Shown: positions 880 to 62,137 of the stretch, piece after piece | Numbering within the stretch: the first letter of the stretch is position 1 | Layout of the letters: each line of letters begins with the position of its first letter | Source of the DNA: Nannocystis sp. ILAH1 | Lineage (GTDB): Bacteria; Myxococcota_A; Polyangia; Nannocystales; Nannocystaceae | Direction: 5' to 3' | DNA: 64,000 bases | NCBI RefSeq assembly: GCF_026626585.1 | Contig: NZ_JAPNKD010000014.1 | Location: 285,207-349,206, forward strand | Made by a program: the position numbers and the translations under genes | The notes under the pieces: model-generated | Database searches by the model: none | Told to the model about the DNA's origin: nothing | Seen by the model: only the letters and a program-made list of their open reading frames with translations

Positions 880-960
880 CGGGCATGCCCGCAAGGACAG
901 GCTCGAGGACACATGTCCGCTAGAACATGTGCCAGGACACCTGTCCGCAAGGTCATGCGA
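880..960. repeat. Cluster of GGACA-N(0-2)-TGTCC palindromic elements in a convergent 3' intergenic region
   Basis: gggcatgccc, ggacacatgtcc, gaacatgtgcc and ggacacctgtcc lie within 80 bp. They belong to the window-wide palindrome family. Confidence 0.6.
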
Positions 961-1819
961 GTGGCGAGCGGTACCAGGCGTCGACGAGCGGACGGATGGC
1001 CGCGAGGATGTCGTCGTGGTGCGCGCCGTGCGAGGCGACCAAACCATTGTCGTGGCCGAGCCGACGCGGGTCGTAGATCAGTGGATGGCCCCACAGGTCG
1101 GTGATGACGCCGCCGACGGCGCGTAGCAGGGCCCACGGCGCGCAGGTGTCCCACAGCTTGGTGCCGCTGCGCGGGTGGACGTAAAGGTCGGCCTCGCCGC
1201 GGGCGATGGTGCCCACCTTCACGCCGACGGAGCCGAGTCGGAGGTTGCGCTCCGGCGGGATGCCGAGCACCTGCATGACCTCGAGGGTCTTCGGGGAGGC
1301 GTGACTCAGGCTGCTGACGAGGCGTAGCTCGGCGAGCGAGCGACCGCTGGCACGCAGCGGGGTGGCCGCGCCGCTGTCGTCGAGGACGAACGCCTCGCGC
1401 CGATCGGGCGTGCAGATGCCCCACGAGAGGCGCGCCGCGCCGGCCTCGTAGACCACGCCGAGGACGGGTTCGCCGCCGATGCAGAGGCCGATCTGGATCG
1501 CCCAGCAGCTCTCGCCGCGGGCGTACTCGGCGGTGCCGTCGATCGGGTCGACGTACCAGCAGCGCGAGACGTCGGCGGCTGCGGCGGCGTCGTCGGCGGA
1601 CTCCTCGGCGACGACCGCGTCGCCAGGGAAGGCCGCGCGCAGCGCAGCGACCAGGCGCGCGTTGATCTCGGTGTCCGCACGAGTGACCGGGCCAGCGTCG
1701 TCAGGCTTGTCCTGGGCCTGCATGACGTCGGCACCACCTGTCTGATAGGCCAGGGCGATGGCGCCGGCCTCGCGGGCGAGCGAGAGGACGAGTCGGAGCT
1801 CGGGGTCGAAAGTGGCCAC
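953..1819 (-). CDS. Inositol monophosphatase family protein (CysQ-like 3'(2'),5'-bisphosphate nucleotidase)
   Basis: It has the family motif WYVDPIDGT, metal-binding acidic residues (EESADD) and a 288 aa length typical of IMPase/CysQ. Confidence 0.8.
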   Translation of the reverse strand: MATFDPELRLVLSLAREAGAIALAYQTGGADVMQAQDKPDDAGPVTRADTEINARLVAALRAAFPGDAVVAEESADDAAAAADVSRCWYVDPIDGTAEYARGESCWAIQIGLCIGGEPVLGVVYEAGAARLSWGICTPDRREAFVLDDSGAATPLRASGRSLAELRLVSSLSHASPKTLEVMQVLGIPPERNLRLGSVGVKVGTIARGEADLYVHPRSGTKLWDTCAPWALLRAVGGVITDLWGHPLIYDPRRLGHDNGLVASHGAHHDDILAAIRPLVDAWYRSPLA

Positions 1820-2091
1820 GCGGGGAACTCTTTCCGGCGCCCTCGGGCGCTCTCTGAAGGGGGTGGCGAGATCTCACTGAGGACGCGGCCGGGACCGGGT
1901 CATCAGGGTTCGCCTGACATGTCGTGTAATATCGAATAACCTGGCGACAAAACAGCGGAAATCAGCCATCCCCCGAGGCTGGCATTTTTCTAGCTGAACG
2001 TCATTTTTGGGGGTTACGAACCTTGTTCCAAGTTGCGCCTCCGGCGAAATCCAAGGTTCCGTCAGGCAAAAAAACCTGCTAGTCATGAGGA
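1820..2091. promoter_or_regulatory. Divergent promoter region (cysQ-like / tetR) with lower GC and inverted repeats (aaccttg...caaggtt)
   Basis: This AT-richer stretch sits between divergently oriented genes. The inverted repeat AACCTTG(N30)CAAGGTT lies just upstream of the TetR start and is a candidate operator. Confidence 0.35.
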
Positions 2092-2703
2092 ATGTCACGT
2101 GTTCAGCGAGCAGGCCTACGACAGGGAATCATCCAAACCAGCCTCGAGATCGGGAGCGAGCGGGGTGAAGAAGGACTGACGATGCGCGGCATCGCGGCCC
2201 GCCTCGGAGTCAGCGCCACGGCGCTCTATCAGCACTTCGAGAGTAAATCGAAGATCCTCCGCGAGATCCGGATCTACGGGGCCGAACTGCTGCAGAGCGA
2301 GGTATTGGAGCCCGCAGCATCGACCGAGGACCCGGCCGAGCGCCTCGTCAACGCCGGCCGCAACTATGTGCAATTCGCCAAGTCGCACAAGTGGCTGTAC
2401 TCGGTGATGATGGGTAACGAGCAGATCGATTGGTCGCAGCACAACACCGAGGAGGTGGACCTGCTGCTGCGCCCGCTCAAGACGTTCCAGGGCTGGCTGG
2501 AGGAGGGCGCGGAGCGCGGCTGCTGGCGCGGCGACGTCGACCTGTCGCTCGCCTCGTTCCGTATCTGGATGTCGCTCCACGGGCTCTGCACGATGCTGCT
2601 GTCGGGGCGCATCAGCGAGGCGCATCCGGCGTTCCCGCGCAAGGACGAGCAGAGCTTCGTCGACGAGTTCATCGACTCGATGATCGCCTGTCTCAAGCCC
2701 TGA
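2092..2703 (+). CDS. TetR/AcrR family transcriptional regulator
   Basis: The N-terminal HTH (TMRGIAARLGVSATALYQHFESK) is typical of the TetR_N family. Length is 203 aa. Confidence 0.85.
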   Translation: MSRVQRAGLRQGIIQTSLEIGSERGEEGLTMRGIAARLGVSATALYQHFESKSKILREIRIYGAELLQSEVLEPAASTEDPAERLVNAGRNYVQFAKSHKWLYSVMMGNEQIDWSQHNTEEVDLLLRPLKTFQGWLEEGAERGCWRGDVDLSLASFRIWMSLHGLCTMLLSGRISEAHPAFPRKDEQSFVDEFIDSMIACLKP

Positions 2704-2708
2704 ACGGG

Positions 2709-3560
2709 CTAAGCCGGCACGAAACACGCCCCGATGCTCTCGAACCCGGGCGCGGGGCTCGGAAACAGCGGTTCACACAGGGAGGGCGACGCGCACTGCG
2801 CGTCGCCCTCGTTCGTGGCGCAGGTCGAGGTGCAGCAGCTGCTCGAGCCGCAATTCGGCACCAGCGCCCCCGGCATGCACACGTACGTGGGGGCGCAGCC
2901 GCGGCCGTTGAACTCCGAGCAATTGGTGCCCTCGGTGCCCATGTCGATGTCGAGCAGCATCTCGCAGACGAATCGATCGGAGCCCTGGCGGCAGCCGAGG
3001 CTCGGCGGACAGATGGCCACGAGAGGGTCACAGCTGTCCGCGCAGTAGGTCGTGCCGCTGAACGGACTGGTGACGCACAGGCCCGGGTCGCAGTCGATGT
3101 CGTTGCGGCAGATCGGGAAACACAGGCCGGAGGTCGGATCGTCCTGCGTCGGCGAGAGACACACGGTGCCGGCGCCGCACCCGTCCTGTCCGCTCTCGGG
3201 CGCAGGCACGCACGGCTCGAGCGGCAGGATCGCGCTGTCGTCGGGTACGCACTTGAAGTGGTTCTGCAGGCCGCCCTCGCTGACCGCGGTGCACTTCTGT
3301 CCTTCGGGACATGCGGGAGTTCCGGACGGTTCACAGTCGTAGACCGGGACGAGGTCCGGCGGCGGCTCGGGCGCTCCCGTGGTCGGCTGCGTGTCGCCCC
3401 CGCCGTTGGTGTCCGTGTCGCCCTCGTCGCCGCCCTGGTTGCCGGCGGTGTCGTCGTCGTCGTAGGGGACGCGCTGACATGCCCCGAGGGACAGGAACGC
3501 GAGGACAGAGACGAGCCGGGCGGCAGTGACGCCGGGGCCGCGGAGCTGCGCGTCGAACAT
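2709..3560 (-). CDS. Secreted Cys-rich lipoprotein (myxobacterial Cys-repeat type)
   Basis: The internal Met gives a signal peptide plus lipobox (VLAFLSLGAC). An Asp/Gly/Thr-rich linker follows, then more than 30 Cys in repeating CxxGxxC modules. Start is set at MFDAQ rather than the upstream Arg-rich extension. Confidence 0.7.
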   Translation of the reverse strand: MFDAQLRGPGVTAARLVSVLAFLSLGACQRVPYDDDDTAGNQGGDEGDTDTNGGGDTQPTTGAPEPPPDLVPVYDCEPSGTPACPEGQKCTAVSEGGLQNHFKCVPDDSAILPLEPCVPAPESGQDGCGAGTVCLSPTQDDPTSGLCFPICRNDIDCDPGLCVTSPFSGTTYCADSCDPLVAICPPSLGCRQGSDRFVCEMLLDIDMGTEGTNCSEFNGRGCAPTYVCMPGALVPNCGSSSCCTSTCATNEGDAQCASPSLCEPLFPSPAPGFESIGACFVPA

Positions 3561-12260: not shown

Positions 12261-12399
12261 GCGCAGCGATTAGCAGGTTGGCCGCGTGAGGCGTGCGGGC
12301 ACGACGGCCGTGGTGTTCCGTGGGGGCGTGACGCGGCGACGCGACCGAGGAGGCGCGCGAGGCGACGCGCGCGCCGGAGCGATGCAGGGGGCGATGGCA

Positions 12400-12560
12400 T
12401 GCGCTTGAGAACATGCTCTCTTGGGCATGTTCGATAAGACATGCTTGATGAGGCATGGTTCATCGGACATGCCTGAATGGACATGCCATCCGGTGCGCGG
12501 AGCAGGCTGCGCCGGGTGAAAAAAGAGGCCGTGCCGAGGCGTGGTCCAGAGGACATGCCC
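12400..12560. repeat. Cluster of more than 8 GACATG/CATGTC palindrome-family elements
   Basis: gagaacatgctctc, gggcatgttcg, agacatgctt, ggacatgcctgaatggacatgccatcc and ggacatgcccgaacggacag lie within 160 bp of intergenic DNA. Confidence 0.55.
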
Positions 12561-12571
12561 GAACGGACAGA

Positions 12572-13837
12572 TCAGCCGGTGCGCGGCGTGGGGCGCGGGA
12601 GCAGGCGGCGTTGGGTGAAGCAGAGGCCCCAGCCGTGCGGCTCCTCGTGCGGGCGCGCGGGGCCGCTGACGAGGCGGGGGCCCTCGGCGCGGGCGGGCGG
12701 GCGTTCGCCGCCGGCGTGGACGCGCACGAGGGCGATGTCGAGGTGGCCGCGGCCGTCCATGTCGAGCGGGAGCTCGGCGACGGTCTCGGCCTCGAGGGCG
12801 AGCGGGCCGCCGGGGGCCTCGACGGCGAGGCCGGTGCGAGCGGGCGCGCGGCCGGGGCGGCGCTCCTGCGTGACCCCGAGGTCGCGGATGGGGACGACGC
12901 CGCCGGGCCGCTGGACGAAGCCGCCGGACAGGCTCACCCACGGGAAGCGGGCGGTGTGCACCCACGTCCGCAGCGGGCCGAGAGTGGCGAAGCACTGCAT
13001 GGCGGCGTCGCTGGCGCCCCAGTCGCGCACGCCCCAATTGTGGACGCGCAGGGCGGCGCCGCCGAAAGCCCGCAGGTCGCGACCGAGGGTGATCGTGCCG
13101 TGAAGATCGCCGGCCTGGACGTAGCCGCGGAGCGGGTGGCGGCGCACTGCGCGGAGCAAGCGGGTGTCCCACGCGGCAGCGCCGAGCTGACGCGCGAGCA
13201 GGTCGGGGTCGTCGTCGGTGCCGGGGACGAACGGCAAGAGGCCGGCGAGGAAGGTGAGGTCGATGCGGGCCTCGATCGACTCGGCGGGGGCGTCGCCGGC
13301 GGGGCGCACCGGCCGGCCGCGCGGGTCGTGGACGTGCAAGGCGCCGCGGTAGCGCAGGGTCCAGGTGCGCAGCGGCTCGACGCAGTCGAAGCCGAGGCCG
13401 CCCACGGACCAGCCGCGCTCGCCGTCGCCGCGCAGCAGGGCCTGGCCGCCGGGGAGGCAGTAGATCGCTGTGGGCGTGAAGAGGGTGAGCCAGACGCGGT
13501 GCGCGTCGCGGTCCGGCAACCACTCGAGGCGCGCGAGCACGGCGAGCTCGGGCTGCACGCCGACGAACACGAACTCCTCGGCGAAGTGCGGCCGGCCGTC
13601 CCAGGCGTGGCGGGCCTCGTCCTGCGGGCGCGGCCACTCGGCGGCGGGTCGTCGGAGCACGGCCCAGCGCGCGATCGCGGCCTTGACCCCGCGGCGCAAC
13701 AACCCCGAGAGGCCGGGATCGGCGATGTCGGCGCCAAGCTCCAAGCCGGGGTCGTCGGGCGGCTCGGCGAGCTCGACGTGCGGGTGCAGCGGCCGGGGCC
13801 CGCGCGGGTCTTCGGAGTGGGAGTCGCGTCCGGACAT
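12572..13837 (-). CDS. Hypothetical protein (421 aa)
   Basis: It is the only ORF in the region with a protein-like composition (W/F/Y/H/C present). The overlapping ORFs are Arg- or Ala/Gly-rich shadows. No family recognised. Confidence 0.5.
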   Translation of the reverse strand: MSGRDSHSEDPRGPRPLHPHVELAEPPDDPGLELGADIADPGLSGLLRRGVKAAIARWAVLRRPAAEWPRPQDEARHAWDGRPHFAEEFVFVGVQPELAVLARLEWLPDRDAHRVWLTLFTPTAIYCLPGGQALLRGDGERGWSVGGLGFDCVEPLRTWTLRYRGALHVHDPRGRPVRPAGDAPAESIEARIDLTFLAGLLPFVPGTDDDPDLLARQLGAAAWDTRLLRAVRRHPLRGYVQAGDLHGTITLGRDLRAFGGAALRVHNWGVRDWGASDAAMQCFATLGPLRTWVHTARFPWVSLSGGFVQRPGGVVPIRDLGVTQERRPGRAPARTGLAVEAPGGPLALEAETVAELPLDMDGRGHLDIALVRVHAGGERPPARAEGPRLVSGPARPHEEPHGWGLCFTQRRLLPRPTPRTG

Positions 13838-14005: not shown

Positions 14006-14794
14006 GTGCCCCGTTTTGCCGCCTGCGCCCTGACCGTCGTCCTGACTGCCGCCTCGGCCCTCGCACCGGCGTGCAACTCCACGCCCGCGGTCGATCCGGC
14101 CGAGCAGGCGGCCCAGATGAAGAAGGACCTCGCCAACGCGGCCGCGCGCGTCAACGACGAGAAGTGGCAAGAGGCCGAGAACATGCTGAAGCGCGTGCTC
14201 GAGGTCGAGCCCAGCAATCCGGAGGCGCAGGCGCTGCTGGCGAAGGTGCGGCTGTACGGCGACAAGGACCCGGCCAAGGCGATCGAGCTGATCGACAAGG
14301 CGATCGCCGCCAAGGGCGACGTGGCCGACTACCACGCGACCCGCGCCGCGGCGCTCGAGAAGAGCGAAAAAGACGCCGACGCGGCCGCGTCGTGGGGCAA
14401 GGCGGCGCAGCTCGACCCCGACAACGGCAACTACGGGCTCCACCAGGGCCAGGCGCTGCGCCGCGCGAAGCAGTTCGAGCAGGCCGAGGCGGTGTTCCGC
14501 GAGGTCATCAAGAACGACGAGGCGGTCAAGTTCGTGTACAGCGAGCTCGGCGACGTGCTACGCGAGCAGGGCAAGCTCGACGAGGCGCTCACGACCTACG
14601 CCAAGGCGATGATCAAGTACCAGGGCGACAAGACGGCCCACGCCGGCGCGGCCCAGGTCTACGAGGCGAAGGGCGAGACGCAGAAGGCGATCGACGAGTG
14701 GTCGACCTACATCCGCATGGACTGCTGCTCGGACTTCAGCAACAACGTGGCGAAGAAGCGGATCGCCGAGCTGCAGCAGGGCCGCGCGGGCTGA
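14006..14794 (+). CDS. TPR-repeat lipoprotein
   Basis: It has a GTG start with GGAGG 8 nt upstream, a lipobox (LTAASALAPAC) and TPR-like units (EAQALLAKVRLYGD..., AEAVFREVIKNDE..., ALTTYAKAMIKYQGD...). Confidence 0.75.
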   Translation: MPRFAACALTVVLTAASALAPACNSTPAVDPAEQAAQMKKDLANAAARVNDEKWQEAENMLKRVLEVEPSNPEAQALLAKVRLYGDKDPAKAIELIDKAIAAKGDVADYHATRAAALEKSEKDADAAASWGKAAQLDPDNGNYGLHQGQALRRAKQFEQAEAVFREVIKNDEAVKFVYSELGDVLREQGKLDEALTTYAKAMIKYQGDKTAHAGAAQVYEAKGETQKAIDEWSTYIRMDCCSDFSNNVAKKRIAELQQGRAG

Positions 14795-14880
14795 GGCTGT
14801 CCGAAAGGGCAGGCGCGGCGTAGCGCCGCGCAGGCTGTCCTCTCGAACAGGTGCGGCTGTCCTCGCGGACAGCCGGCAGC
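14795..14880. terminator. Hairpin-rich convergent intergenic region (likely bidirectional termination)
   Basis: Perfect inverted repeats GCGCGGCG-TA-GCGCCGCGC and GGCTGTCC-TCGC-GGACAGCC lie between two convergent gene ends. No U-tract follows. Confidence 0.4.
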
Positions 14881-21171: not shown

Positions 21172-21187
21172 GGCTATCCTCGCGGGC

Positions 21188-22234
21188 ATGGGCCTGCTCC
21201 ACCGTCTGTATGCTCGCGCCGCGCCCGAGGTCTGGGAGACCGAGACGCGGCTGCTGCACGCGCTCCGACTGGTCCGCCGGCCGCTCGCGGTGCAGTGGAT
21301 CGCCACTGCGATGTGCGACCTCCGCTGTCCGCACTGCTACTCCGGCGCGGGCAAGCGGGCCGAGGGCGAGCTGACGACGCAGGAGGCGATCCGTCTGGTG
21401 GTCGACGAGCTGGTGGCGCTCGGCCGGCCGACCTTCGTGATCGCGGGCGGGGAGCTGTTGCTGCGCCGCGACATCGCCGAGATCGTAGCGCACGCGCGGG
21501 CGCAGGGGCTCGAGTGGGCGATGCACACGCACGGGGGACATGTCCCCAAGTTCAGGTCGCTGTTCGAACGCCACCCGCCGACTCTGGCGGCGATCAGCCT
21601 CGACGGCGAGCAGCGGCAGCACGACCTGTTCCGCGGGCGCCAGGGCAGCCACGCGGCGGCGCTGGCTGCTATCCGCACGCTCAAGGAGTGCGGCTGTCCG
21701 GAGGTGGTGGCGGGGACGACCGTGACGCGCGAGAACGCCGACCGCCTGGCCGACCTGTTCCCGATCGTCGCAGCCTCGGGGGCCGATTCGTGGGGCCTCC
21801 ATCTCTTCGCTCCGGAGGGCCGCGGCGCCGAGCACACCGCGCTGTGTCCGACGCCGGAGCAGCTGCGCCGCGTGGCCGCGTTCGCCCGCCGCAAGCGCGG
21901 GCTGTTCCACGTCGAGCTGTGCAACGAGTGGGGCAGCGCCGGCGCCGACGATCGCTTCTACCGCGACCAGCCGTTCCTGTGCGGGGCCGGCCGGATCTCC
22001 TGCGTCGTCGGGGCGACCGGCGAGGTGCTTCCGTGCACCACCACCGACCTGCGCGAGTCGGAGGGCAACGTGCGCGACCGGCCGCTGCGTGACATCTGGA
22101 CCCGCGGCTTCACGCGCTTCCGCAGCGCCGGCCACCGCGAGTGCTCGGACGGCCACGAGTGCTGGCTGCAGGCCCGCAACGGCAACCCGTGCCGCGAGCA
22201 GGCGTTCGGCGCCTGCCGCAAGGAGGCGGTGTGA
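21188..22234 (+). CDS. Radical SAM protein with C-terminal SPASM domain
   Basis: It has the CDLRCPHCY (Cx3Cx2C) motif and a C-terminal Cys cluster (CGAGRISCVV...CTTTD...CSDGHECW...C...C). It lies 16 nt downstream of the MFS gene. Confidence 0.85.
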   Translation: MGLLHRLYARAAPEVWETETRLLHALRLVRRPLAVQWIATAMCDLRCPHCYSGAGKRAEGELTTQEAIRLVVDELVALGRPTFVIAGGELLLRRDIAEIVAHARAQGLEWAMHTHGGHVPKFRSLFERHPPTLAAISLDGEQRQHDLFRGRQGSHAAALAAIRTLKECGCPEVVAGTTVTRENADRLADLFPIVAASGADSWGLHLFAPEGRGAEHTALCPTPEQLRRVAAFARRKRGLFHVELCNEWGSAGADDRFYRDQPFLCGAGRISCVVGATGEVLPCTTTDLRESEGNVRDRPLRDIWTRGFTRFRSAGHRECSDGHECWLQARNGNPCREQAFGACRKEAV

Positions 22235-23547
22235 GGCGCTGGTGGCTCGACCTGGGCTCGTTCGCGGTGGCGCTCGCGCTGGCCGCGGCGGTGGTGCTCC
22301 GCTGGCGTCGGGGTCACGTGGCGCTGCTGTCGAGCACGGCGGCGCCGGCGATCCGGCTGCTCGCGCTGCTGATCGTGTTCGTGCAGGGCTGCGCCGACCG
22401 GCTGCGCGGGCGCGAGGAGCCGGACGGGCAGGGGGCTGTGCCGGGCTCTCAGGACATGTCGGTTGGGGCAGGTCCATCGCAGCAGGTCGAAGAGGACATG
22501 TCCCAAGGGGCAAATGCTCCGGAGAGCTCGGGGACGACGCCGACGCTCGGGCCCGACGCATTCCCGCTGGCCGACGAGGCGGCGCTGGGCAGGTGGGCGC
22601 GGCTCGTCGCGGACGACGGGTTCGCCGTCGGGCCGGGCAAGCGGTTCGCGCTGGCGCTGGTGCCGGTGCCGGAGGCGACGCCGGCCCAGGACCCGCGGTG
22701 GCTGCAGGTCGCGTCCGCCCTCGAGGCGCTGGCCGACGCGGCCGGCGGCGCCGAGGGTGAGGCGTTTCGCAGCCGCTGGCGGGCGCACGTGGAGGCGCGC
22801 AAGGCAGGCGGCAGCGAGACGATCGCGGAGCTGCAGGCGCTGCTGAGCAGCATGGAGGCGCTGCCGCTCTACCACGCGGGGCTGGCGGGCTACGTGTGGC
22901 GCCGGGCGGCGCCGCTGCCGGTGAGCGCATCGGAGCGGGCGGAGCTTTTCGGGCGGATCGAGCGGCACCTGCGGGCCTGCGAGGCGCTGCTGAAGGGCCA
23001 GTTCGAGACGGGGCCGATCGAGTTCACTGCGTGGCGCAGCAAGGCAGCCCCGCCGGTCGGCTACTCGGGCTTGAAGGTGCCGAAGGGGCTGCTGGCGGCG
23101 GCGAAGGGGCACTATCCGCAGATCGACGCGGGGACGTGGACGGTCGAGGCGACGCTGTCTCTGACCGTGGTCGACGCGGGCGTGACGCTGCTGCGCGCGG
23201 GCCGGGCGTCGGAGCTGCAGGCGGGGCAGCGGTTTACTCTGGGCCGGCTGGACGTGCTGGCGAGCGGGCGACCGGCGAAGCTGCGCCACGATGAACTCGG
23301 GGACATGTCCCTCGGAGCAGGCGCGGTGGTGACTGCGTGGGACGTCGGCCAGCGGCTCGCGAGGCCCGGGAGCGAGCGGGTGCGGGCGAAGGTGGCAGCG
23401 GCCCAGAGCGACGATTCGAAGGCGCTCGAGCAGCTGCAGTCGATCCTGCCGGCGGCGCACCTCGAGATCCGCCGCGCGCTGGCCGAGAAGCCACAGGCAC
23501 CCGGCTCGCCGGGGCTGCGCACGCTGCTCGAGCTGTTCGACCAGTGA
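22231..23547 (+). CDS. Membrane-anchored protein of unknown function, translationally coupled to the radical SAM gene
   Basis: The GTG start overlaps the rSAM stop (GTGA) and has a perfect AAGGAGG SD. It has an N-terminal TM (WWLDLGSFAVALALAAAVVL). It contains in-frame GGACATGTCC elements. Confidence 0.6.
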   Translation: MRRWWLDLGSFAVALALAAAVVLRWRRGHVALLSSTAAPAIRLLALLIVFVQGCADRLRGREEPDGQGAVPGSQDMSVGAGPSQQVEEDMSQGANAPESSGTTPTLGPDAFPLADEAALGRWARLVADDGFAVGPGKRFALALVPVPEATPAQDPRWLQVASALEALADAAGGAEGEAFRSRWRAHVEARKAGGSETIAELQALLSSMEALPLYHAGLAGYVWRRAAPLPVSASERAELFGRIERHLRACEALLKGQFETGPIEFTAWRSKAAPPVGYSGLKVPKGLLAAAKGHYPQIDAGTWTVEATLSLTVVDAGVTLLRAGRASELQAGQRFTLGRLDVLASGRPAKLRHDELGDMSLGAGAVVTAWDVGQRLARPGSERVRAKVAAAQSDDSKALEQLQSILPAAHLEIRRALAEKPQAPGSPGLRTLLELFDQ

Positions 23548-23599
23548 GCCGCTCTTCCTCCGAGCGCGGCCGCTGGGGCGAGCCACGGCGGACTCGCTC

Positions 23600-23780: not shown

Positions 23781-23782
23781 GC

Positions 23783-31710: not shown

Positions 31711-31800
31711 GGTCGAAAGGGCATGTCCGAAGGGGCATGCTCTGCGGGAAAGGTCTTCCGGGACATGTCCGAGGCGACATGTCCTCGGGGACTTCCCGTC
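31711..31800. repeat. Cluster of palindrome-family elements between convergent kinase and cyclase genes
   Basis: gggcatgtccgaaggggcatgctc ... gggacatgtccgaggcgacatgtcctcgggg. Confidence 0.55.
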
Positions 31801-40451: not shown

Positions 40452-40491
40452 TCGGCGAGGCTGTCCCGAAGGACAGCCTGTCTCGAAGGCC

Positions 40492-40525
40492 AGGAGGCCC
40501 GGCGCACGCCGGGCCTTCGGCGCTT
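40492..40525 (+). terminator. Candidate intrinsic terminator after the FHA gene
   Basis: GGCCCGGCG-cac-GCCGGGCC forms a 9-bp perfect stem. It is followed by the T-rich ttcggcgctttctc. Confidence 0.45.
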
Positions 40526-45560: not shown

Positions 45561-45849
45561 CGGACGGCCCACATTTTCGCCCGAGCCCCGATCACTTCTG
45601 CGAATTCGACCGCAACCACGTCCACTACGGTGAATCGCGGGCGGGCCGACCTGATGCGATTTCGTGGGAGCCCTTCGGACATGTCTGTAGGGTCATGTCG
45701 CGCGCTTCCACTGTCACTTGCCCGCGCGCCGCGTGCCGCATGGCCCCAGGTCCGCGGCCACAGCGGCGCGCTGGTGATCGGCCCGAGGCGGGCCGCGATC
45801 GCGCCGACGCTCGCGTTCCATCCTTCGCGCGCCGGCCGTCGCGCGAGCG

Positions 45850-46481: not shown

Positions 46482-49028
46482 ATGGCGCCGGCGAGCCACC
46501 CGAAGCGGATGTCTGCCCTGACGCTGTGCATGGCGACCACGGCGCTGCTCGCCTGTCGCCCCGCGGCGCTCACCCCCGAAGCCGAGCGCGTGCATCGGGG
46601 CGTCAATCAGATCCCCCTCAGCGCCCGACCCCCGACCGCAGGGACGCCGACCCCACCGGCAGCCGCCCTGCCGCCCCAGGCGCCTGCGGAGGTCTCCGCG
46701 GCGGCCTTGCTGGCGCGCGGCGAACCCGAGGCCGCGCTCGCGCGCCTGGCTCACGAGCCCGCGGCAGCCGGGTCGCTGCAAGCCTCGGTGCAGCGCCTGA
46801 CGAAGGCCCGCGCCGCTCGCGAGCTGGGTCGCCCGGCCGAAGCGGTCCAGGCGTTGGCCGAGCTGGCGGCGGAGCGGCGGCCGGCCAAGTCGTGGCCGCA
46901 CGAGGTGGTGCTTCACGAGTACGCCCAGGCGCTGGTCGAGGCGGCGGCGTCGGCCCCGGGCGCCGAGGCCGACGCGCTGCGCAAGCAGGCGGTGGCGGCG
47001 TGGGAGCGGGCGATCGACCACGAGCCGGTGCGCAACGCGGCGCCGATGCGAGTGGCGCGGGCGCGGACGATGGCGGCGATCGAGGGCCAGGCGGCGGCGC
47101 GCCGCGCAGTCAAGGCGCTGACCGAGGTGCTGCGCGACTACCCCGAGCACCCCGACGCCGCCGGCCTCGAGCTGCTGCGGGCGCAGGCGATCGCGCGCGA
47201 GGGCAAGACCGCCGACGCGGTCAAGGCGCTGCGCACCGTGGCCATCTGGCGCGCCGGCACGGAGGCGGCCGTCGGCGCCGAGGCGGCGCTGGCGGAGCTC
47301 GGGCGCCCGGTCCGCTACAGCGCGGCCGAGCAGCTCGACCGCGCGGCCGCGGCCCGCCGCTCGCGCGACATGACGCTGTCGCGCCGGGTGCTGACCGACC
47401 TGGTCGAAGATTCCAAAACTCCGGGACATGTCCGAGAGGTCGCGTTGCGCTCGCGGGCGTCGACCGCCTCGCGCGCCCATGACTACGGCGCGTGCGCGGA
47501 TGACCTTTCGGTCCTGTCCAAAAAGTCAGCCTCGGCCGACCTCCGCGGCGACCTGCTGCGCTGCCTCGACAAGGCCGGGCGCTACGACGAGGCGCTGGCG
47601 ATCTGGACCGAGCAGGCCGGCCGCAAGGGCGGGGCCGGGCGCGCGGCGCTGTGGGAGGCGATCCGCCAGGCGGTCCGCGGCGGCCGCTACGAGAAGGCGC
47701 GCGAACTGCTCGGGCGCACGCAGGCGAAGGAGCGCCAGCGCGGGGAGGGGCTGTGGCTCGACGCCTGGCTCGACTTCCGCCTCGGCGACTTCGACGCCGC
47801 TGCGACCGCGTTCGCCAGCGCGGAGCGCCGCCTGCCGGCCGACCAGGCCCGCGCTGCCCGCTACTTCCGCGCCCGCGCGCTGCTGGCCGCCGGCACCGGC
47901 GCGAAGGCGACAGGCGACGCAGGCGAAGAGCAGACCCCCGATCGCGGCGAGGCCGAGCGGCTGCTGCGACAGCTCGTGGCCGAGGATCCGCTCGGCTACT
48001 ACGGCCTGCAGGCGCGCCAGCGGCTGCTCGACATCGGCGCCGATCCGGGACCGCTGCCGGCGCTCGCCCCGGTGCCCGCGGAGTCGAACGCGCCGCCCGA
48101 CTTCGCGGCCACGCGCGCGACCTTCGAGGCGCTGGCCGGCGAGTTCGGCTGGGCCTTCCCGGCGCTGGCCCGCGGCGCGGCGCTCCACGCCGCCGGTCTG
48201 CTCGACGAGGCGCGCCGCGAGCTGCGGGTCGCAGTCGACGCCTACGAGGGCCTCTACGGGCTCGATCGCGGCGGCTGGGTCCCGCGCCACGAAGACCTGG
48301 TGGTGGGGCTGAGCTGGAAGTCGACGTGGAAGCAGCCGCGCCTCGGCCTGCCGAAGGACGCGCGCAAGCTGGTGCGCGAGCGCGGGGCCGGCGAGACGCT
48401 GCGCGAGGGGCTGTTCGCGCTGACGTGGGCGCTCGACGAGCCGTATCGCCGCAGCCGCCTGATGCCGGCCACGGCCGGCTCGTACAAGGCGCGCTGGCAC
48501 CCGCGGGCGTTCCGCGAGGCGGTCGAGCGCGAGGCCACTGCCCGCGCCTTCGACCCGACGCACCTGTGGGCCCTGATGTACACCGAGTCGCGGTTCCGCC
48601 GGCACGTGGTGTCGTCGTCGGGCGCGCGCGGGGCGATCCAGATCATGCCGTGGACCGGGCAGCAGCTGGCGGCGCGCCTCGGCGAGTCGTTCGACGTCGA
48701 CGCGCTGTTCGACGAGGAGCACAACGTGCGCCTGTCGGCCTATTACTTCGCCGAGCTGCTGCACAAGTTCCACGGCCAGGCCGCGCTGGCCTACGCGAGC
48801 TACAACGGCGGCCCGTTCAACGTCGCCCGCTGGCTGGCCGCCAAGGGCTCGACCTCGGCCCCGCTCGAGCTCGACGTCTTCATCGCCGAGATCCCGTTCC
48901 GCGAGACGGCCAACTACACCCGCCGCGTGCTCGAGGTGCAGGCCGCGTACGCCCTGATGTACGGCGGTTCGCTGCCGCGCTGGCAGAACACGGTCGACCT
49001 GCGCGTCGAGGACAACATCGACTTCTGA
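46482..49028 (+). CDS. Soluble lytic murein transglycosylase (Slt family) with N-terminal helical/TPR-like superhelix
   Basis: The C-terminal SLT domain carries catalytic YTESRFR and GAIQIMP. The long Ala/Leu-rich N-terminal domain and the signal/lipobox (LLACRP) are also present. Confidence 0.8.
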   Translation: MAPASHPKRMSALTLCMATTALLACRPAALTPEAERVHRGVNQIPLSARPPTAGTPTPPAAALPPQAPAEVSAAALLARGEPEAALARLAHEPAAAGSLQASVQRLTKARAARELGRPAEAVQALAELAAERRPAKSWPHEVVLHEYAQALVEAAASAPGAEADALRKQAVAAWERAIDHEPVRNAAPMRVARARTMAAIEGQAAARRAVKALTEVLRDYPEHPDAAGLELLRAQAIAREGKTADAVKALRTVAIWRAGTEAAVGAEAALAELGRPVRYSAAEQLDRAAAARRSRDMTLSRRVLTDLVEDSKTPGHVREVALRSRASTASRAHDYGACADDLSVLSKKSASADLRGDLLRCLDKAGRYDEALAIWTEQAGRKGGAGRAALWEAIRQAVRGGRYEKARELLGRTQAKERQRGEGLWLDAWLDFRLGDFDAAATAFASAERRLPADQARAARYFRARALLAAGTGAKATGDAGEEQTPDRGEAERLLRQLVAEDPLGYYGLQARQRLLDIGADPGPLPALAPVPAESNAPPDFAATRATFEALAGEFGWAFPALARGAALHAAGLLDEARRELRVAVDAYEGLYGLDRGGWVPRHEDLVVGLSWKSTWKQPRLGLPKDARKLVRERGAGETLREGLFALTWALDEPYRRSRLMPATAGSYKARWHPRAFREAVEREATARAFDPTHLWALMYTESRFRRHVVSSSGARGAIQIMPWTGQQLAARLGESFDVDALFDEEHNVRLSAYYFAELLHKFHGQAALAYASYNGGPFNVARWLAAKGSTSAPLELDVFIAEIPFRETANYTRRVLEVQAAYALMYGGSLPRWQNTVDLRVEDNIDF

Positions 49029-51937: not shown

Positions 51938-52154
51938 GGTCGCGGCGCGGCATCGGCTCACGAGGGCCGGTGCCGCTCGCGGCCGGTGAGCGCGTCGTCG
52001 GCCGCCGCTAGCGGACCCCCTGTCCTCAGGGGCAGGTGATTCGGCCAGCTCGTCGAGGGCCAAGTCCGCCGAGTGATCGGCAGGTCCGACGACCTGTCCT
52101 CACGAACAGGTCGCAAGTGAGTCACCCGACGGGCGGCCGCGAGCGAGCGCAGGC

Positions 52155-52544: not shown

Positions 52545-52701
52545 GATGGTTCCTCCGCCCGAGTTCTGATCCGGGTCGAGCGGACGAACAAGTCAAAAGG
52601 TCGTATCGCGCGCGCGCCGCCCGCGATGCCTGACTTTAAAAACATGTGCGGCCGGACATGTCCCGAAGGACCTGCCCGACCGCGCTCGTCCAGGACGACG
52701 T

Positions 52702-55073: not shown

Positions 55074-55405
55074 CCTTCAGGTCATGTGAGGCGCCACTGC
55101 GGCGCTGCGGGTGAAAAAAAAAGTTTGGGACATGGCCTTCGGGTCATGTGAGGCTCGGGGTCAATCGACGGGGGCCAGCGAAGATCGGAGCGCTGGACTT
55201 CACGTGTTGCCGACTGGACCTCGCGGTAGGACGCCGGCCTCGGTCGGTCAGCCGATCCCATGCACGGCTGCGGCCGTGAGGGGGCCGACACTGTCGGTCT
55301 CGGTGGAGGATGTCCTTCGGGACACGTTGCTCGGCGCCTGTTCGACGGCCAGGGTTGGCCGCCGAACAGGCGCCTCTTCACGTCCTTCGCCCGCGGTCGC
55401 TTCGG

Positions 55406-59729: not shown

Positions 59730-59935
59730 GTCCTGCGTCGAAAATTGAGCCAGTGCGCCGCCCCGGGGGAGACCCTGCGGCGGCGCGCTCGCTTGGGTCG
59801 CCGTCATCTAGCGGCCGGGACTGACGGACGAAGATCTCGGTCGAGCTGGTCCAAAGGACAGCTCCCGGTTTCAGTGCGGGGGGCGCGCGGTCGGCCGGGC
59901 GTGCGAGAGCTGTCTATTGGGGCATGTCCGAAAGG

Positions 59936-60640
59936 CTAGGCCGGGACCTCGATGACGGCAGGGACCACTAGTTCGTGGCGGATCACGGTGCCGTCGGGCT
60001 TGAAGTAGAGCTCGTGCAGGCGACCGCCGGTCTCGAACTCGATCTCGTACTCGTCGCCGGCGCCGGTGAGGGTCTTCTTCTCGACCTCCTTGATCGCAAC
60101 GCCGGGGTGGGCCTTGTCGAACGCGGCGCGCACGGGCTCGGGGAGGGCCTTGGCGTCGATGTGGCACTCGGTGTAGACGACGCCGCCGTCGGCCCTCGCG
60201 CTGAGCTCGCACTGTTGCTTGTCGGCGGTCTCGACCTCGACCTCGTGCAGGCGGCCATGCGGGACCACGTGTTCGGTCTCGTAGCGCAGCACCTTGGCGC
60301 CGGGGTAGGTCGCGTCGAGCTGCTTGCGCACGGCCTCGGGCACCGCGGCGGCGTCCTGGTGATAGACGGACAGGTAGCGCACCGAGCCGTCCTTCTCGAG
60401 CTCGACCTTGATCTTCTCGACACCCTGGGCCGTGCCGGCGGCGCGCACGAGATCGGTGTCGAGCTGGCCAGGGCCGACGGGCGCGGGCGCGGGCGGCGGA
60501 GCCGGTTTGGCCTCGGCCGGCGGGGGCGCGGCGACTTTGCTCGGAGCAGGGGCGGGCTCGGCCTTGCTCGCTGTCCCGGGGCCGCATGCGGCGAAGAGCA
60601 GGCCAGCGACGCCGAGCGCCAGGATGCCGTGGTGATGCAT
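59936..60640 (-). CDS. Lipoprotein with tandem PepSY-like modules
   Basis: It has a lipobox (LLFAAC) and a Pro/Ala-rich linker. Two similar 80 aa modules each end in a ...E(V/I)E... pattern. Confidence 0.55.
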   Translation of the reverse strand: MHHHGILALGVAGLLFAACGPGTASKAEPAPAPSKVAAPPPAEAKPAPPPAPAPVGPGQLDTDLVRAAGTAQGVEKIKVELEKDGSVRYLSVYHQDAAAVPEAVRKQLDATYPGAKVLRYETEHVVPHGRLHEVEVETADKQQCELSARADGGVVYTECHIDAKALPEPVRAAFDKAHPGVAIKEVEKKTLTGAGDEYEIEFETGGRLHELYFKPDGTVIRHELVVPAVIEVPA

Positions 60641-61143: not shown

Positions 61144-61200
61144 GACGGTCCGCGGGTGCGCCTGCGACCGCGAAGGTCGGGTGGGGCGGGCGGAGCGAGG

Positions 61201-61380
61201 TGTCTTGAGGGACAGATGAGGCAGAGGTGTCGGCGTCGCGGTTTCGAGGACTGACCCGAGAGACAGGTGAAATTCGCAGACTCGGGGTCGATAGATGGCT
61301 GTCTCATGAGACAGGTGAAGTCGACGGGGTGCTGACGTTGGCTGTCCCGAGGGACAGGCCGAGCGTCCGCGGGCGTGAGG
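61201..61380. repeat. Cluster of GACAG/GACATG palindrome-family elements
   Basis: gagggacagatgagg, gagagacaggtgaa, ggctgtctcatgagacaggtgaag and ggctgtcccgagggacaggcc. Confidence 0.5.
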
Positions 61381-61525
61381 CTGCGAGGCCTCGCCCGATC
61401 GCGTTCGCCACCGCGGCAGGCGCGGCTCGTGTGAAAGCGCGCGCGAGGAAACCGCGGCCGCGGCGGCGCGCGCTCCGGTCGCACGGGTCGTCAGGGCGGT
61501 GGCGCCGGGGTACATTCGCGCGCCC

Positions 61526-62080
61526 ATGACGAGCGCGATGGTCCGCCTGTTCCCGCCCCGTACGCCCGCCGCCGTGCTGACCGCGGGGTGGGGCATGCTC
61601 GGGGTGGTCGCGTTGCTGGCGAGCGCGCTCGTCCGCCTGACGCCGCTGGCGATCGAGCCGCTGACGACCGGGATGACGCCGCTGCAGTGGGGGCTGTACG
61701 TCGGCTGGTCGCTGTTCAACCTGTACGCCGAGGGCTACAAGGGCTTCCAGAAGGCGTTCGTGCCGCGCGCGGTGGCGCGGGCGTTCTACCTGGCCCGCTA
61801 CCCGCGGCCGCTGCACGTGGCCCTGGCGCCGCTGTTCTGCATGGGGCTGTTCTACGCCAACCGCAAGCGGCTCATCCTGTCGTGGGGCCTGGTGATCGGG
61901 GTGACTGCGCTCGTCACTCTGGTCCGCGGCCTGGACCAACCGTGGCGCGGGATCGTCGACGCGGGGGTGGTGCTCGGGCTGTCCTACGGGACAGTCGCGC
62001 TGCTGATCGCGTTCGTCGCGGTGCTGCGCGGGCGGCCGATCACCGTGTCGCCCCAGGTGCCGGACGGGGCGCCGCAGTAG
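61526..62080 (+). CDS. Integral membrane protein, unknown function
   Basis: The product has 4-5 predicted TM helices. The start is ambiguous (61499 or 61526). Confidence 0.5.
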   Translation: MTSAMVRLFPPRTPAAVLTAGWGMLGVVALLASALVRLTPLAIEPLTTGMTPLQWGLYVGWSLFNLYAEGYKGFQKAFVPRAVARAFYLARYPRPLHVALAPLFCMGLFYANRKRLILSWGLVIGVTALVTLVRGLDQPWRGIVDAGVVLGLSYGTVALLIAFVAVLRGRPITVSPQVPDGAPQ

Positions 62081-62137
62081 GCTGGCCTTCGGGACAGGCT
62101 GTCCGGGAGGCCAGGCGCGGCGCCGGCCGGATGCAGC

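Follow-up and report, generated by a model that had tools for sequence, protein, structure and literature searches.

The gene ends of the 64-kb window (the whole stretch of DNA analysed, 64,000 nucleotides from the soil myxobacterium Nannocystis sp. ILAH1), and above all the spacers between its convergent genes, carry a family of very short hairpin-forming repeats whose core is the 14-nt inverted repeat 5'-TGTCC-N4-GGACA-3'; the 4-nt spacer is of free sequence, and the invariant part amounts to 5+5 nt, loops and flanks varying from copy to copy. We tentatively read it, with a probability of roughly 45% and on the evidence of sequence comparison, as a REP/TRIT-like family of gene-end hairpins that is specific to the genus Nannocystis and would be recognized by sequence by some putative factor. 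The core corresponds to a tetraloop on a stem of 5 bp, which ACA/TGT or GGC/GCC flanks often lengthen to 8-10 bp, and units adjoin head to tail with a strict phase of 14 nt, so that the 10-bp palindrome GGACATGTCC appears at their junctions and neighbours could pair in alternative registers. In the window a gap of exactly 4 nt between the arms is seen 17 times (0.4 expected) and a direct period of exactly 14 nt is seen 10 times (0.3 expected); the exact spacer is kept in 8 of 8 window copies, 15 of 16 from the core species, 10 of 11 from more distant Nannocystis and 204 of 206 from metagenome contigs. The repeat copies carry neither a GTAG-type head nor any other conserved flank, and no long conserved copies bearing the motif were found.

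The initial annotation had described a 22-bp perfect palindrome, CCTTCGGGACATGTCCCGAAGG, which has no match in the window even when up to 3 mismatches are allowed; what stands of that description is a strongly non-random family of short palindromes, present at essentially all the places where it had been reported. Its proposed core, GGACA-N0-2-TGTCC, is indeed enriched (8 matches in the window versus 0.11 expected) but is better defined as TGTCC-N4-GGACA, and the cluster at 3650-3860, which it had included, consists of four copies of CGGAC-TNNT-GTCCG, a different geometry that we do not count as family. An unbiased k-mer scan ranks GGACATGTCC as the top over-represented word of the window (z about 22), with 71 occurrences at up to 2 mismatches versus 25.6 +/- 5.5 expected, while a dimer model, GGACATGTCC-N4-GGACATGTCC, at 14 or more of 20 matches finds 50 versus 2.6 expected and a trimer model at 19 or more of 30 matches finds 53 versus 1.0. 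A covariance model trained solely on other Nannocystis species, and not on the window copies, returns 86 strand hits at E<=1, or about 55 distinct sites across the 64 kb, against an expectation of ~1 strand hit at that threshold, so that the earlier count of "over 60 full or partial copies" was about right. That the family is not a named repeat also holds, since Rfam yielded no match even at E<=1 and full-text literature searches returned nothing relevant on this repeat.

The bias toward gene ends noted at the outset is borne out both in the window, where copies per kb number 13.9 in convergent spacers, 1.67 in tandem spacers, 1.07 in divergent spacers and 0.34 in coding sequence, and in independent metagenome contigs (48 contigs, 420 kb), where the corresponding densities are 11.6, 1.56, 0.97 and 0.33. 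Convergent spacers thus are the densest class in both, and in them the family lies about 250-fold over chance. At a strict threshold a copy occurs in 16 of the 39 spacers of at least 20 nt (10 of 11 convergent, 4 of 18 tandem, 2 of 10 divergent), so that "nearly every intergenic region" was an overstatement; copies are also found in genes. Arrays begin either right at a stop codon or no more than about 20 nt away, the 5' arm lying most often 0-20 nt from the stop codon (59 of 97), and spacer folds reach z scores of -2.2 to -6.9 (Table 1).

Table 1. Repeat elements of the window, with their setting and notable properties.
Position	Strand	Element	Setting and remarks
881..960		six-unit array, 14-nt phase	fills convergent spacer 868-952; hairpin cores 886-899, 914-927, 942-955; stable fold on both strands (z -2.7 and -4.2)
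12395..12574		three arrays, 4 + 2 + 2 degenerate RRRCATGYYY-N4 units	convergent spacer 12261-12571; last unit overlaps stop codon of minus-strand gene
14791..14878		three GGCTGTCC-N4-GGACAGCC-type hairpins	cores 14798, 14836, 14858; fill convergent spacer 14795-14880; first starts at stop codon; fold z -3.9 and -6.1; different arrays in orthologous spacers of L058 and L059
16273..16300		lone hairpin ATGTCC-TTGA-GGACAT	divergent spacer, one of just two occupied; 25.1 bits
17414..17517		three units/pairs, 17414-17423, 17441-17464, 17494-17517	convergent spacer 17386-17514
21534..21561		intragenic copy GGGGACATGTCCCC	radical-SAM domain; rare codons GGA and CAT; motif identical in two other species, adjacent synonymous sites vary
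22450..22517		five-unit in-phase intragenic array	low-GC3 linker of hypothetical protein; repeated peptide DMS-x-GA
23299..23326		intragenic copy GGACATGTCC-CTCG-GAGCAGGCGC	encodes nearly invariant peptide GDMSLGAG
23596..23768		10-bp-stem hairpin GGACATGTCG-TGA-CGACATGTCC (23612-23634) and four-unit array (23717-23768)	convergent spacer 23548-23782
28613..28640		two-unit intragenic copy	in Ser/Thr kinase domain; mostly retained in two other species
28907..28934		hairpin GGATGTCC-TCAG-GGACAGG	near 3' end of minus-strand enolase-family gene; inside, or just upstream of, kinase gene start; 24.5 bits; same sequence in three species
31717..31798		six-unit array, one perfect GGACATGTCC at 31761	fills convergent spacer 31710-31806; fold -54.4 kcal/mol, z -6.9
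40455..40495		perfect 9-bp hairpin GGCTGTCC-CGAA-GGACAGCC, then partial unit	starts 9 nt past stop codon of FHA-domain gene; 25.2 bits, best covariance-model hit; present in L012 and L001
40917-40940		additional unit	further unit beyond the 40455..40495 element
45675..45702		two-unit array GGACATGTCT-GTAG-GGTCATGTCG	gene-less region 45142-46481
47424..47447		perfect intragenic GGACATGTCC	rare codons GGA and CAT; surrounding ~50 nt essentially identical in 5 of 6 species, the sixth having a GC3-rich version without motif and without indel
52014..52115		two hairpins, cores 52021 and 52095	convergent spacer downstream of metG
52640..52691	-	four-unit array, roughly 16-bp hairpin then UUUUU	one perfect GGACATGTCC at 52654
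55126..55153	-	two-unit hairpin	run of nine U 7 nt downstream on minus strand
55252..55388	+	composite element, about 130 nt, three hairpins	middle hairpin is family member GGATGTCC-TTCG-GGACAC, core 55311-55324
59840..59945		two hairpins/units, 59840-59867 and 59906-59929	spacer before stop codon of gene 59936-60448(-), which the next in-phase unit overlaps
61196..61363		four spaced TGTC(C/T)-N4-(G/A)GACAGGTG hairpins	cores 61201, about 61252, 61300, 61343; tandem spacer 61144-61498
62076..62120		two overlapping hairpins, cores 62083 and 62100	fill convergent spacer 62081-62137; begin directly after stop codon

The family is confined to Nannocystis. In its more distant genomes the core is present and the 10-mer palindrome almost absent; after metG, for example, the hairpin of these genomes differs from that of the window but retains the TGTCC-N4-GGACA top, on lower stems whose sequences are unrelated. 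Arrays are found in all the orthologous convergent spacers that were compared but cannot be aligned between species, which is to say that they are replaced rapidly while their presence is kept. Among adjacent perfect units, 16 of 80 (20%) share an identical spacer and are therefore exact 14-nt duplicates (0.3 expected by chance), and L122 holds at least 4 perfect units in tandem; the frequency of such duplicates points to growth by slippage, and slippage in replication of the 14-nt unit would both lengthen and shorten arrays. High copy number, extragenic location skewed toward gene 3' ends, clustering, hairpin formation, genus specificity and fast turnover all agree with the REP-like behaviour first suggested, whereas the MITE-like alternative named alongside it is not supported: there are no long conserved copies, only 5+5 nt are invariant, and intragenic copies lack indels relative to orthologues.

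The arrays sit in a region of the genome nearly devoid of canonical hairpin-plus-U terminators, which occur in the window at chance level only; a T run of at least 4 follows only 7 of 54 oriented copies, so that few copies look like terminators. Some family copies are nonetheless built into hairpin-plus-U terminators, namely 52640-52691(-), 55126-55153(-) and, within the composite element, the third hairpin. The first of these resembles an intrinsic terminator of gene 52702-53508(-): it folds more stably on the minus strand (-35.4 versus -27.3 kcal/mol on the plus strand), its mismatches are G.U on that strand, and one compensatory G-C to A-T change separates species. The last hairpin of the composite is long and, in most aligned copies, followed by a T-rich tail; five species carry this element in the orthologous spacer, L004 has it in duplicate, and N. 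punicea also has a reversed copy in a spacer that is not orthologous (L058 4907-5047). Purified mycobacterial RNA polymerase fails to terminate at hairpins lacking a U-tract, even when NusA and NusG are present (PMC3993855).

The indications of an RNA-level role are no more than suggestive. Read on the strand that is sense for the nearest upstream gene, the copies show more G.U pairs than A.C mismatches (17:3 for the window, 31:11 for six species), and the sense strand folds more stably in the window (Wilcoxon p=0.03); the folding difference is not significant across the six species, and the G.U:A.C ratio in the metagenome contigs is 31:19 (p=0.12), or 9:9 where orientation is unambiguous, so that the strand asymmetry fails clean replication. 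Complementarity does extend past the 5-bp core (3.24 pairs of the next 8 versus 2.66 with permuted partners, p<0.001, n=136), but covariation is weak, with 74.7% paired cells versus 73.5% in shuffles and the observed value reached by 131 of 500 shuffles (36 copies), indicating that pairing mostly reflects the palindromic consensus. It is conceivable, though we consider it rather unlikely, that the arrays are double-stranded binding sites for an abundant genus-specific, putatively dimeric protein recognizing a GGACA half-site, be it nucleoid-associated, a transcription roadblock or a topology factor comparable to gyrase and IHF, both of which bind to REP/BIME elements. Its operators would then be TGTCC-N4-GGACA (5-4-5) and GGACATGTCC (5-0-5), and phased 14-bp arrays would load several dimers at convergent junctions and so insulate or terminate transcription. 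The symmetry of the site, its invariant arms and its fixed 4-nt spacer of free sequence are what such a protein would favour, as are the near absence of covariation beyond column composition, the lack of a clear strand asymmetry in independent contigs, the depletion from divergent (promoter) spacers, which fits selection against interference, and the isolated intragenic 10-bp palindromes that are written in rare codons, conserved across species and more numerous than in synonymous shuffles. Complementarity past the core on unrelated lower stems in some copies, the sense-strand G.U excess (48:22, window and metagenome contigs summed) and a 14-bp centre-to-centre spacing that is tight for helix-turn-helix dimers argue against it.

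The density gradient itself, decreasing from convergent to tandem to divergent spacers and to coding sequence, is also what purifying selection would leave of a proliferating element, and the rapid gain and loss of arrays between close species, the common exact tandem duplicates and the ~130-nt composite, which contains a family hairpin, occupies non-orthologous sites and has undergone local duplication in N. punicea, would suit a selfish or neutral repeat of no host function. Mobilized as REP-like single-stranded DNA hairpins by a RAYT/IS200-type HUH transposase, with slippage amplifying the copies, such a repeat would fill convergent spacers only because insertion there does the least harm. 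We regard this as unlikely: only 10 nt are conserved, no GTAG-like head or other flank accompanies them, the differing loops and flanks run contrary to recent copying, arrays are kept in orthologous convergent spacers despite complete sequence turnover, and the conserved intragenic copies arose without indels. An E. coli RayT query, too, found no match in the 1.6 Mb of sequence examined, a weak test given that RAYTs are usually single-copy.

A terminator or 3'-end role offers no explanation for the copies inside genes, some of which are isolated 10-bp palindromes unable to form the tetraloop hairpin. These copies exceed synonymous-codon shuffles (10 versus 2.5 and 8 versus 2.8; exact matches 3 versus 0.16 and 4 versus 0.23) and show no indels relative to orthologues; at 23299..23326 the near invariance of the encoded peptide indicates that protein constraint contributes to conservation. 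Enrichment in coding DNA through synonymous codon choice, together with genus specificity and a CATG-centred palindrome that could be a methylation site, recalls genome-signature palindromes such as cyanobacterial HIP1 or the Neisseria DNA uptake sequences, which would be kept by a DNA-level process (uptake bias, methylation-linked repair or biased conversion), with inverted pairs serving secondarily as gene-end hairpins; the uptake sequences of Neisseria and Haemophilus do form inverted pairs at terminators. This reading is nevertheless very improbable, inasmuch as coding density is about 40 times below that of convergent spacers, in contrast to HIP1 and the uptake sequence of Haemophilus, what has been conserved longest is the 5-4-5 inverted repeat and not one oriented word, and uptake sequences lack strict 14-nt arrays. 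A chance or compositional artefact of a 71% G+C genome and its codon usage is already refuted by the controls: some weak intragenic matches do reflect protein constraint, such as the conserved DMS peptide and the site at 43121, which recurs at the matching position in 5 of 5 other species, but the observed counts exceed all shuffle controls and exact cores number 0 in ~400 kb of actinobacterial loci of equal G+C and 1 in 211 kb of other Nannocystaceae.

The reading of the family as sequence-recognized gene-end hairpins finds parallels in enterobacterial REP/BIME elements, which are comparable as very short palindromic repeats but bear the GTAG-type head that is absent here, and in the mycobacterial TRIT, likewise a palindromic and mostly bidirectional gene-end hairpin of one genus, held in a narrow position relative to stop codons and proposed to be recognized by a sequence-specific factor. 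New loci may be seeded by a candidate HUH/RAYT-type enzyme whose substrate would be single-stranded DNA hairpins or, alternatively, by de novo point mutation followed by slippage. Read-through transcripts of both flanking genes would fold into very stable tetraloop hairpins that may tag RNA 3' ends at gene boundaries or protect them, and, because the arms are invariant in sequence and more than merely complementary, the top of the stem would be read by a putative sequence-specific factor, presumably a protein.

The family analyzed here is a very abundant palindromic repeat, phased and specific to the genus, that concentrates at the ends of convergent genes; its members share the 14-nt inverted repeat TGTCC-N4-GGACA (the 5-4-5 core). 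The initial annotation had described a 22-bp perfect palindrome, which has no match in the window at up to three mismatches, built on a core GGACA-N0-2-TGTCC, which does occur far beyond expectation (8 in the window vs 0.11). An unbiased scan of k-mers, with a third-order Markov model as expectation, puts GGACATGTCC, GACATGTC and ACATGTCC at the head of the over-represented 10-mers and 8-mers (z 11-23), and GGACATGTCC at up to two mismatches is found 71 times, with 25.6 ± 5.5 expected. Compared with 30 dinucleotide shuffles, the gap from TGYCC to GGRCA is exactly 4 nt in 17 cases (0.4 expected) and never any other length between 0 and 7 nt; GGRCA directly abuts TGYCC 12 times (0.5 expected), and a second GGRCA follows the first at a distance of exactly 14 nt in 10 cases (0.3 expected) and of 28 nt in 4. 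These exact spacings define a 14-nt unit in which GGRCA abuts TGYCC and N4 follows, in strict phase, an arrangement equivalent to TGTCC-N4-GGACA repeats with abutting units. A dimer model (at least 14 of 20 positions) matches at 50 positions against 2.6 expected, a trimer model (at least 19 of 30) at 53 against 1.0, and the merged matches form 29 arrays of 2-6 units. Among copies, TGTCC and GGACA alone are near-invariant; the loops are free, the 4-nt spacer being constant in length and unconstrained in sequence. All the clusters that had been listed harbor family copies except that at 3650-3860, which consists of four palindromes of a different geometry, CGGAC-TNNT-GTCCG. Since the count from an iterated position-weight matrix rose at a fixed threshold, fixed-model scans against shuffles were used instead; a covariance model built solely from 36 copies of other Nannocystis species yields 86 strand hits in the window, that is, ~55 distinct sites at E<=1, with ~32 sites at E<=0.1. 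Taking the window as representative, extrapolation to genomes of 12-13 Mb gives several thousand copies. A CRISPR-like array was discarded on inspection of the sequence, as a 14-nt period has no room for unique spacers, and the resemblance to the eukaryotic p53 half-site RRRCATGYYY is taken as coincidence.

The geometry of the unit is shared by relatives of the window: among exact TGTCC-Nx-GGACA matches, x equals 4 in 8 of 8 cases in the window, 15 of 16 in five sister species, 10 of 11 in more distant Nannocystis and 204 of 206 on metagenome contigs. In the more distant Nannocystis, whose MetRS is ~70% identical, the frequency of the 5-4-5 core matches that of the window and 10 cores stand against a single GGACATGTCC; as the latter is nearly absent there, the 10-bp palindrome is a derived by-product of abutting units and the 14-nt inverted repeat the older element. 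At ~20 kb sampled per genome, the counts of exact cores are 8 for the window, 15 for the core species and 10 for the more distant Nannocystis, compared with 1 in 211 kb of other Nannocystaceae and 0 in ~400 kb of Actinobacteria. These simple pattern counts agree with the covariance model, whose sites of 17 bits or more number ~25 in 86 kb of the more distant Nannocystis loci, 1 in ~211 kb from other Nannocystaceae, and 1 in ~390 kb from Actinobacteria with the same G+C. That the element is not a named repeat is borne out by Rfam, which returned no known RNA family at the gathering threshold or at E<=1, and the full-text literature on palindromes of Nannocystis, on REPs of myxobacteria and on the motif, as searched, held nothing relevant. 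Phage carriage was discarded, as 0 viral contigs carry the double-hairpin pattern. One conserved locus on metagenome contigs of lower G+C (L092 and its like) looks like an ordinary operator, and shows that a 5-4-5 site can occur elsewhere as a single regulatory site; its shared small gene gave no clue to a binding protein.

The window is ordinary chromosome of ~71% G+C throughout, carrying carB, metG, Ser/Thr kinases, an FHA-domain protein, an ABC-F ATPase, arginase, purT and others, in a gene order shared by its relatives; no tRNA genes were found in it. Its MetRS shares 96% identity with the enzyme of Nannocystis pusilla Na p29 and 89-92% with the counterparts in N. exedens, N. bainbridge, N. 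radixulma and N. punicea. The product of the gene at 22231-23547 matches a Nannocystis sp. ILAH1 hypothetical protein at 100% identity. On a gene map from a GC3-based caller, checked at two orthologous loci against gene calls from N. punicea and a second Nannocystis assembly, copies matching at least 9 of 10 positions occupy 10 of 11 convergent spacers (13.9 per kb), compared with 4 of 18 tandem spacers (1.67 per kb) and 2 of 10 divergent ones (1.07 per kb); genes hold 0.34 per kb, and the shuffle expectation is ~0.055 per kb. Convergent spacers are thus ~40 times as dense as coding DNA, and their occupancy exceeds that of divergent spacers with a one-sided Fisher p of ~0.002, computed from the spacer counts. 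The same pattern recurs in public metagenomes, where a pattern scan returned 72 stretches, of which the 48 with at least 68% G+C (420 kb) were used: 11.6 per kb in convergent, 1.56 in tandem and 0.97 in divergent spacers, and 0.33 in genes. The bias toward extragenic DNA and gene 3' ends that had been proposed holds in both data sets. In 59 of 97 cases the first 5' arm is found from -10 to +19 nt of the stop codon, and several units overlap the stop codon itself; convergent spacers are short and made almost wholly of arrays, so that this tight position may reflect the arrays being the spacer rather than a function. A promoter or transcription-factor operator was rejected, given that divergent spacers are depleted and convergent ones filled.

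Positions of family members, related elements and other features (window positions unless a locus is named)
Position	Strand	Feature
953; 12572; 14794; 59936		Units overlapping stop codons
14791-14878; 40455-40482; 61196-61363; 62076-62120		Further GGCTGTCC-N4-GGACAGCC hairpins
31712-31802		Stably folding spacer, -54.4 kcal/mol, z -6.9
52640-52691	minus	Family copy with U-tract
55126-55153	minus	Family copy with U-tract
55252-55388		Composite element, ~130 nt
L004 (N. punicea) 15620-15733 and 15927-16055		Composite element, tandemly duplicated
L058 (N. punicea) 4907-5047	reversed	Composite element at a non-orthologous spacer
L122 (metagenome contig) 2155-2219		At least four perfect tandem GGACATGTCCTCCT units, running into contig end
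L092 (metagenome contig) 5707-5750		Locus conserved on L092, L068, L073, L076, L098, L107 and L115 (58-62% G+C, unrelated taxon): three to four GGACA/TGTCC half-sites, TGTCC-N4-GGACATGTCC-N4-GGACAATGTCC, ~110 nt upstream of small gene
3561-4617		Gene-less, ~1 kb
3656; 3723; 3771; 3810		CGGAC-TNNT-GTCCG palindromes
4055-4554		Tandem repeats, periods 36 and 72 nt, ~8 copies
19849-23547		MFS transporter, radical-SAM/SPASM gene and Nannocystis-specific hypothetical protein (hydrophobic N-terminus, nearly invariant GDMSLGAG motif), overlapping or abutting, operon-like; may be a peptide-maturation cluster
25089-25155		23-nt unit TGCGGAGCTCACGCCGGTCGGGC, 2.9 copies, 95% identity, in spacer between purT-like and large kinase genes
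45142-46481		1.3 kb without convincing gene; could be small RNA or decayed element
45299-45269	minus	Strong hairpin-plus-T6 terminator-like site
45499-45470		Sigma-70-like promoter match, ~170 nt upstream of the terminator-like site
45859-46216		Repeat of ~128-nt period
47385-47531		~140-nt low-GC3 segment in SLT-domain gene, with conserved GGACATGTCC at 47424
47494-47521		Second unit pair in SLT-domain gene, then AAAAA
49892-51937		MetRS gene
59395-59748		Short ORF, mostly (GGC/GCG)n tract; would give Gly-rich or Arg/Gly-rich low-complexity protein; two family hairpins just downstream
59527-59704		24-nt super-period within this ORF

The spacers fold very stably on both strands, and the hairpin right after metG in more distant genomes keeps a TGTCC-N4-GGACA top on unrelated G+C-rich lower stems. 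In the U-tract copy at 52640-52691 a compensatory G-C to A-T change separates species, and the mismatches are G.U on the sense strand, followed by UUUUU. Covariation across 36 copies is weak: paired cells amount to 74.7% vs 73.5% in column shuffles, 131 of 500 of which reach the observed value, the score is 0.148 vs 0.141, and 36-56% of outer-stem cells are unpaired. A stem run-length test on the metagenome hits was confounded by the selection of contigs and was redone on loci not chosen by motif, where the next 8 positions of 136 copies contain 3.24 Watson-Crick pairs vs 2.66 under partner permutation (p<0.001), with at least 5 of the 8 paired in 22% of copies vs 9%. The conserved feature is mainly the palindromic sequence, with a minority of copies extending to long stems. 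On the sense strand of the nearest upstream gene, G.U outnumbers A.C mismatches by 17:3 in the window (p=0.003) and, over six species, by 31:11; on metagenome contigs the ratio is 31:19 (p=0.12), and 9:9 at sites that lack a convergent partner gene. Strand asymmetry in fold energy reaches p=0.03 in the window and is not significant in six species, and the loops include GNRA- and UNCG-type tetraloops whose orientation is not clear. Selection at the RNA level is suggested, and the indirect signs that the hairpins end or stabilise transcripts are mixed.

The hairpins share with canonical intrinsic terminators their G+C-rich stems directly after stop codons, and a few family copies carry a U-tract; the stem sequence is free in canonical terminators whereas it is conserved here. 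Sites matching the hairpin-plus-U consensus occur at chance level (7 vs 5.0, 5 vs 3.9 and 6 vs 5.1 over the 60 kb scanned) and 7 of 54 oriented copies have a T run of at least 4 in the 28 nt that follow, so that identity with canonical terminators was rejected. The arrays fill the places where terminators are expected, yet most of them are not canonical terminators. Purified mycobacterial polymerase does not terminate at hairpins without U-tracts, even with NusA and NusG (PMC3993855), which makes simple intrinsic termination unlikely here; by this analogy, a factor-dependent or RNA-protective role would be more plausible. We favor, with a probability somewhat below one half (about 0.45), an explanation in which arrays enlarged by slippage of the 14-nt unit would be transcribed into tetraloop hairpins that mark or protect RNA 3' ends and are read by a putative sequence-specific factor.

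The copies inside genes bear on a different reading, namely that the arrays serve a double-stranded-DNA-binding protein. Four of the six perfect GGACATGTCC copies lie within genes and, against 200 shuffles that keep both protein sequence and codon usage, coding DNA contains 10 hairpin cores vs 2.5 and 8 palindromes vs 2.8 at 9 or more of 10 matches; for exact matches the figures are 3 vs 0.16 for 5-4-5 cores and 4 vs 0.23 for palindromes, values that 0 of 200 shuffles reach. The copies at 21536, in the radical-SAM domain, and at 47424 are written with the rare codons GGA and CAT and do not differ between species, while adjacent synonymous sites vary. At 47424 one species has a motif-free, GC3-rich version of equal length; these copies thus arose or are kept by substitution rather than insertion, and in-frame insertion in the style of the Rickettsia palindromic elements was rejected, orthologues showing no indel at 47424, 21536, 28615 and 23301. 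Nucleotide conservation of the low-GC3 segment around 47424 suggests an embedded non-coding signal. In the gene at 22231-23547, three copies encode a DMS peptide conserved in homologues, the third site being nearly invariant even at a distance, so that protein constraint contributes there. Enrichment within genes fits a pure terminator role poorly and provides the chief argument for DNA-level recognition. As a rival, an array for a double-stranded-DNA-binding protein is held to be less likely than the favored explanation.

The arrays themselves turn over. Orthologous convergent spacers of N. punicea (L058) and another Nannocystis assembly (L059) all carry arrays, and unit number, spacer sequence and spacer length differ too much between orthologous arrays, including those of alignment regions C and F, to be aligned; in regions D and O some copies keep their position. 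Of 80 pairs of adjoining perfect units, 16 carry identical 4-nt spacers and 4 carry reverse-complementary ones (chance 0.3 each). These identical neighbors, together with the perfect tandem array on metagenome contig L122, speak directly for growth of the arrays through tandem duplication of the 14-nt unit, with slippage as the simplest mechanism. Such growth is also what a selfish or neutral repeat would display, a reading that we hold to be unlikely. The initial suggestion of a MITE-like element finds no backing in the data, which contain no long (>~24 nt) copies with the motif, orthologous arrays that defy alignment, and gene copies without insertion; no dispersed repeat longer than 20 nt carries the motif, and the repeats present are two unrelated local ones and low-complexity tracts in coding DNA. 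MITEs and Rickettsia palindromic elements are likewise dispersed palindromes, some of them in frame inside genes, and the Nannocystis family departs from them in having no copies beyond ~24 nt and no insertion relative to orthologues. A composite element of three hairpins, found in the orthologous spacer of five species, is a low-copy repeat separate from the motif family: its first hairpin is the palindrome CACGGCTGCAGCCGTG, its second a TGTCC-N4-GGACA family member and its third long, GCGCCTGTTCGACGGCCAG...CTGGCCGCCGAACAGRCGC, with a T-rich tail in most copies. Its tandem duplication and its presence at a non-orthologous spacer, both in N. punicea, imply some movement of larger modules, and it may be a mobile terminator-like module.

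A genome signature of the kind represented by cyanobacterial HIP1 (GCGATCGC) or by uptake sequences, which in Neisseria and Haemophilus are often inverted pairs at gene ends, is improbable: the family shares with these a short lineage-specific word or palindrome and a coding excess through codon choice, which no synonymous-codon shuffle reaches for exact matches, but it is overwhelmingly intergenic, with a fixed 5-4-5 geometry and tandem phased arrays, rather than one word spread evenly over coding and non-coding DNA. REP and BIME elements, as described, act as mRNA stabilisers or terminators and as protein-binding sites. Those of Enterobacteria, Pseudomonas and Stenotrophomonas resemble the Nannocystis repeats in being short, lineage-specific extragenic palindromes of high copy number that form hairpins and cluster at gene 3' ends and between convergent genes; they are, however, 20-40 nt long, conserved over their whole length and equipped with a GTAG-type head, whereas here only 5+5 nt are invariant and the phased 14-nt arrays are a feature foreign to REPs. 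In 54 copies aligned to the sense strand, no position outside the palindromic consensus is conserved as a GTAG-like head would be, and tblastn and phmmer with E. coli RayT gave no significant match in 1.6 Mb (~0.9 Mb of it Nannocystis-like), a sample too small to be informative on a single-copy gene in a ~12-Mb genome. The REP-like character proposed at the outset thus survives in copy number and extragenic 3'-end bias but not in head or whole-unit conservation.

A second precedent is the mycobacterial motif TRIT ('Tuberculosis Rho-independent terminator'; Gardner et al. 2011, PMC3152330). It is a gene-terminus hairpin, confined to one genus, mostly bidirectional and conserved in sequence as well as structure, with 147 copies per genome, and a factor binding its double-stranded stem was proposed. 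Both are sequence-conserved palindromic hairpins confined to one genus and placed at gene termini, in a narrow position relative to the stop codon, within high-G+C genomes poor in canonical terminators; their sequences are unrelated, their phyla differ and both functions are putative. TRIT is a single longer hairpin, as opposed to a 14-nt unit in phased arrays that is also enriched inside genes and would, by extrapolation, reach several thousand copies rather than 147. Lacking the GTAG head and whole-unit conservation, the Nannocystis family would work like a REP or a TRIT and belong to neither; TRIT is its closest functional counterpart and REP/BIME its closest evolutionary one. The favored explanation, hairpins at RNA 3' ends read by a factor, and its rivals need not be mutually exclusive, as the REPs themselves illustrate. 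What is new is the tiny 5-4-5 unit, its strict 14-nt phasing and its codon-level enrichment in genes; the kind of element is already known.

On a more speculative and unlikely note, the arrays might be landing pads for a Nannocystis-specific protein that reads the 5-bp arms, as double-stranded DNA or as an RNA stem, and forms a factor-dependent bidirectional terminator or insulator at convergent junctions. If true, they would substitute for U-tract terminators in a high-G+C lineage and provide an independent second case of the mycobacterial TRIT proposal. High-G+C bacteria without hairpin-plus-U terminators pose the question, raised by TRIT in 2011, of how transcripts are ended and kept apart where genes converge. 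The Nannocystis family offers an unrelated analogue in another phylum, far more abundant and with a simple and rigid grammar, and hence an independent system in which a dedicated factor at gene-end hairpins can be tested. In practical terms, the motif could serve as a landmark for annotating gene 3' ends in the ~12-13 Mb Nannocystis genomes; the arrays, which probably break short-read assemblies, are likely to interrupt contigs (a perfect array stands at the end of one metagenome contig), and their unit number, probably variable between strains, could be used for typing. Even if merely selfish or slippage-driven, the family would still show, on an unusually small and regular scale, how spacer DNA arises.
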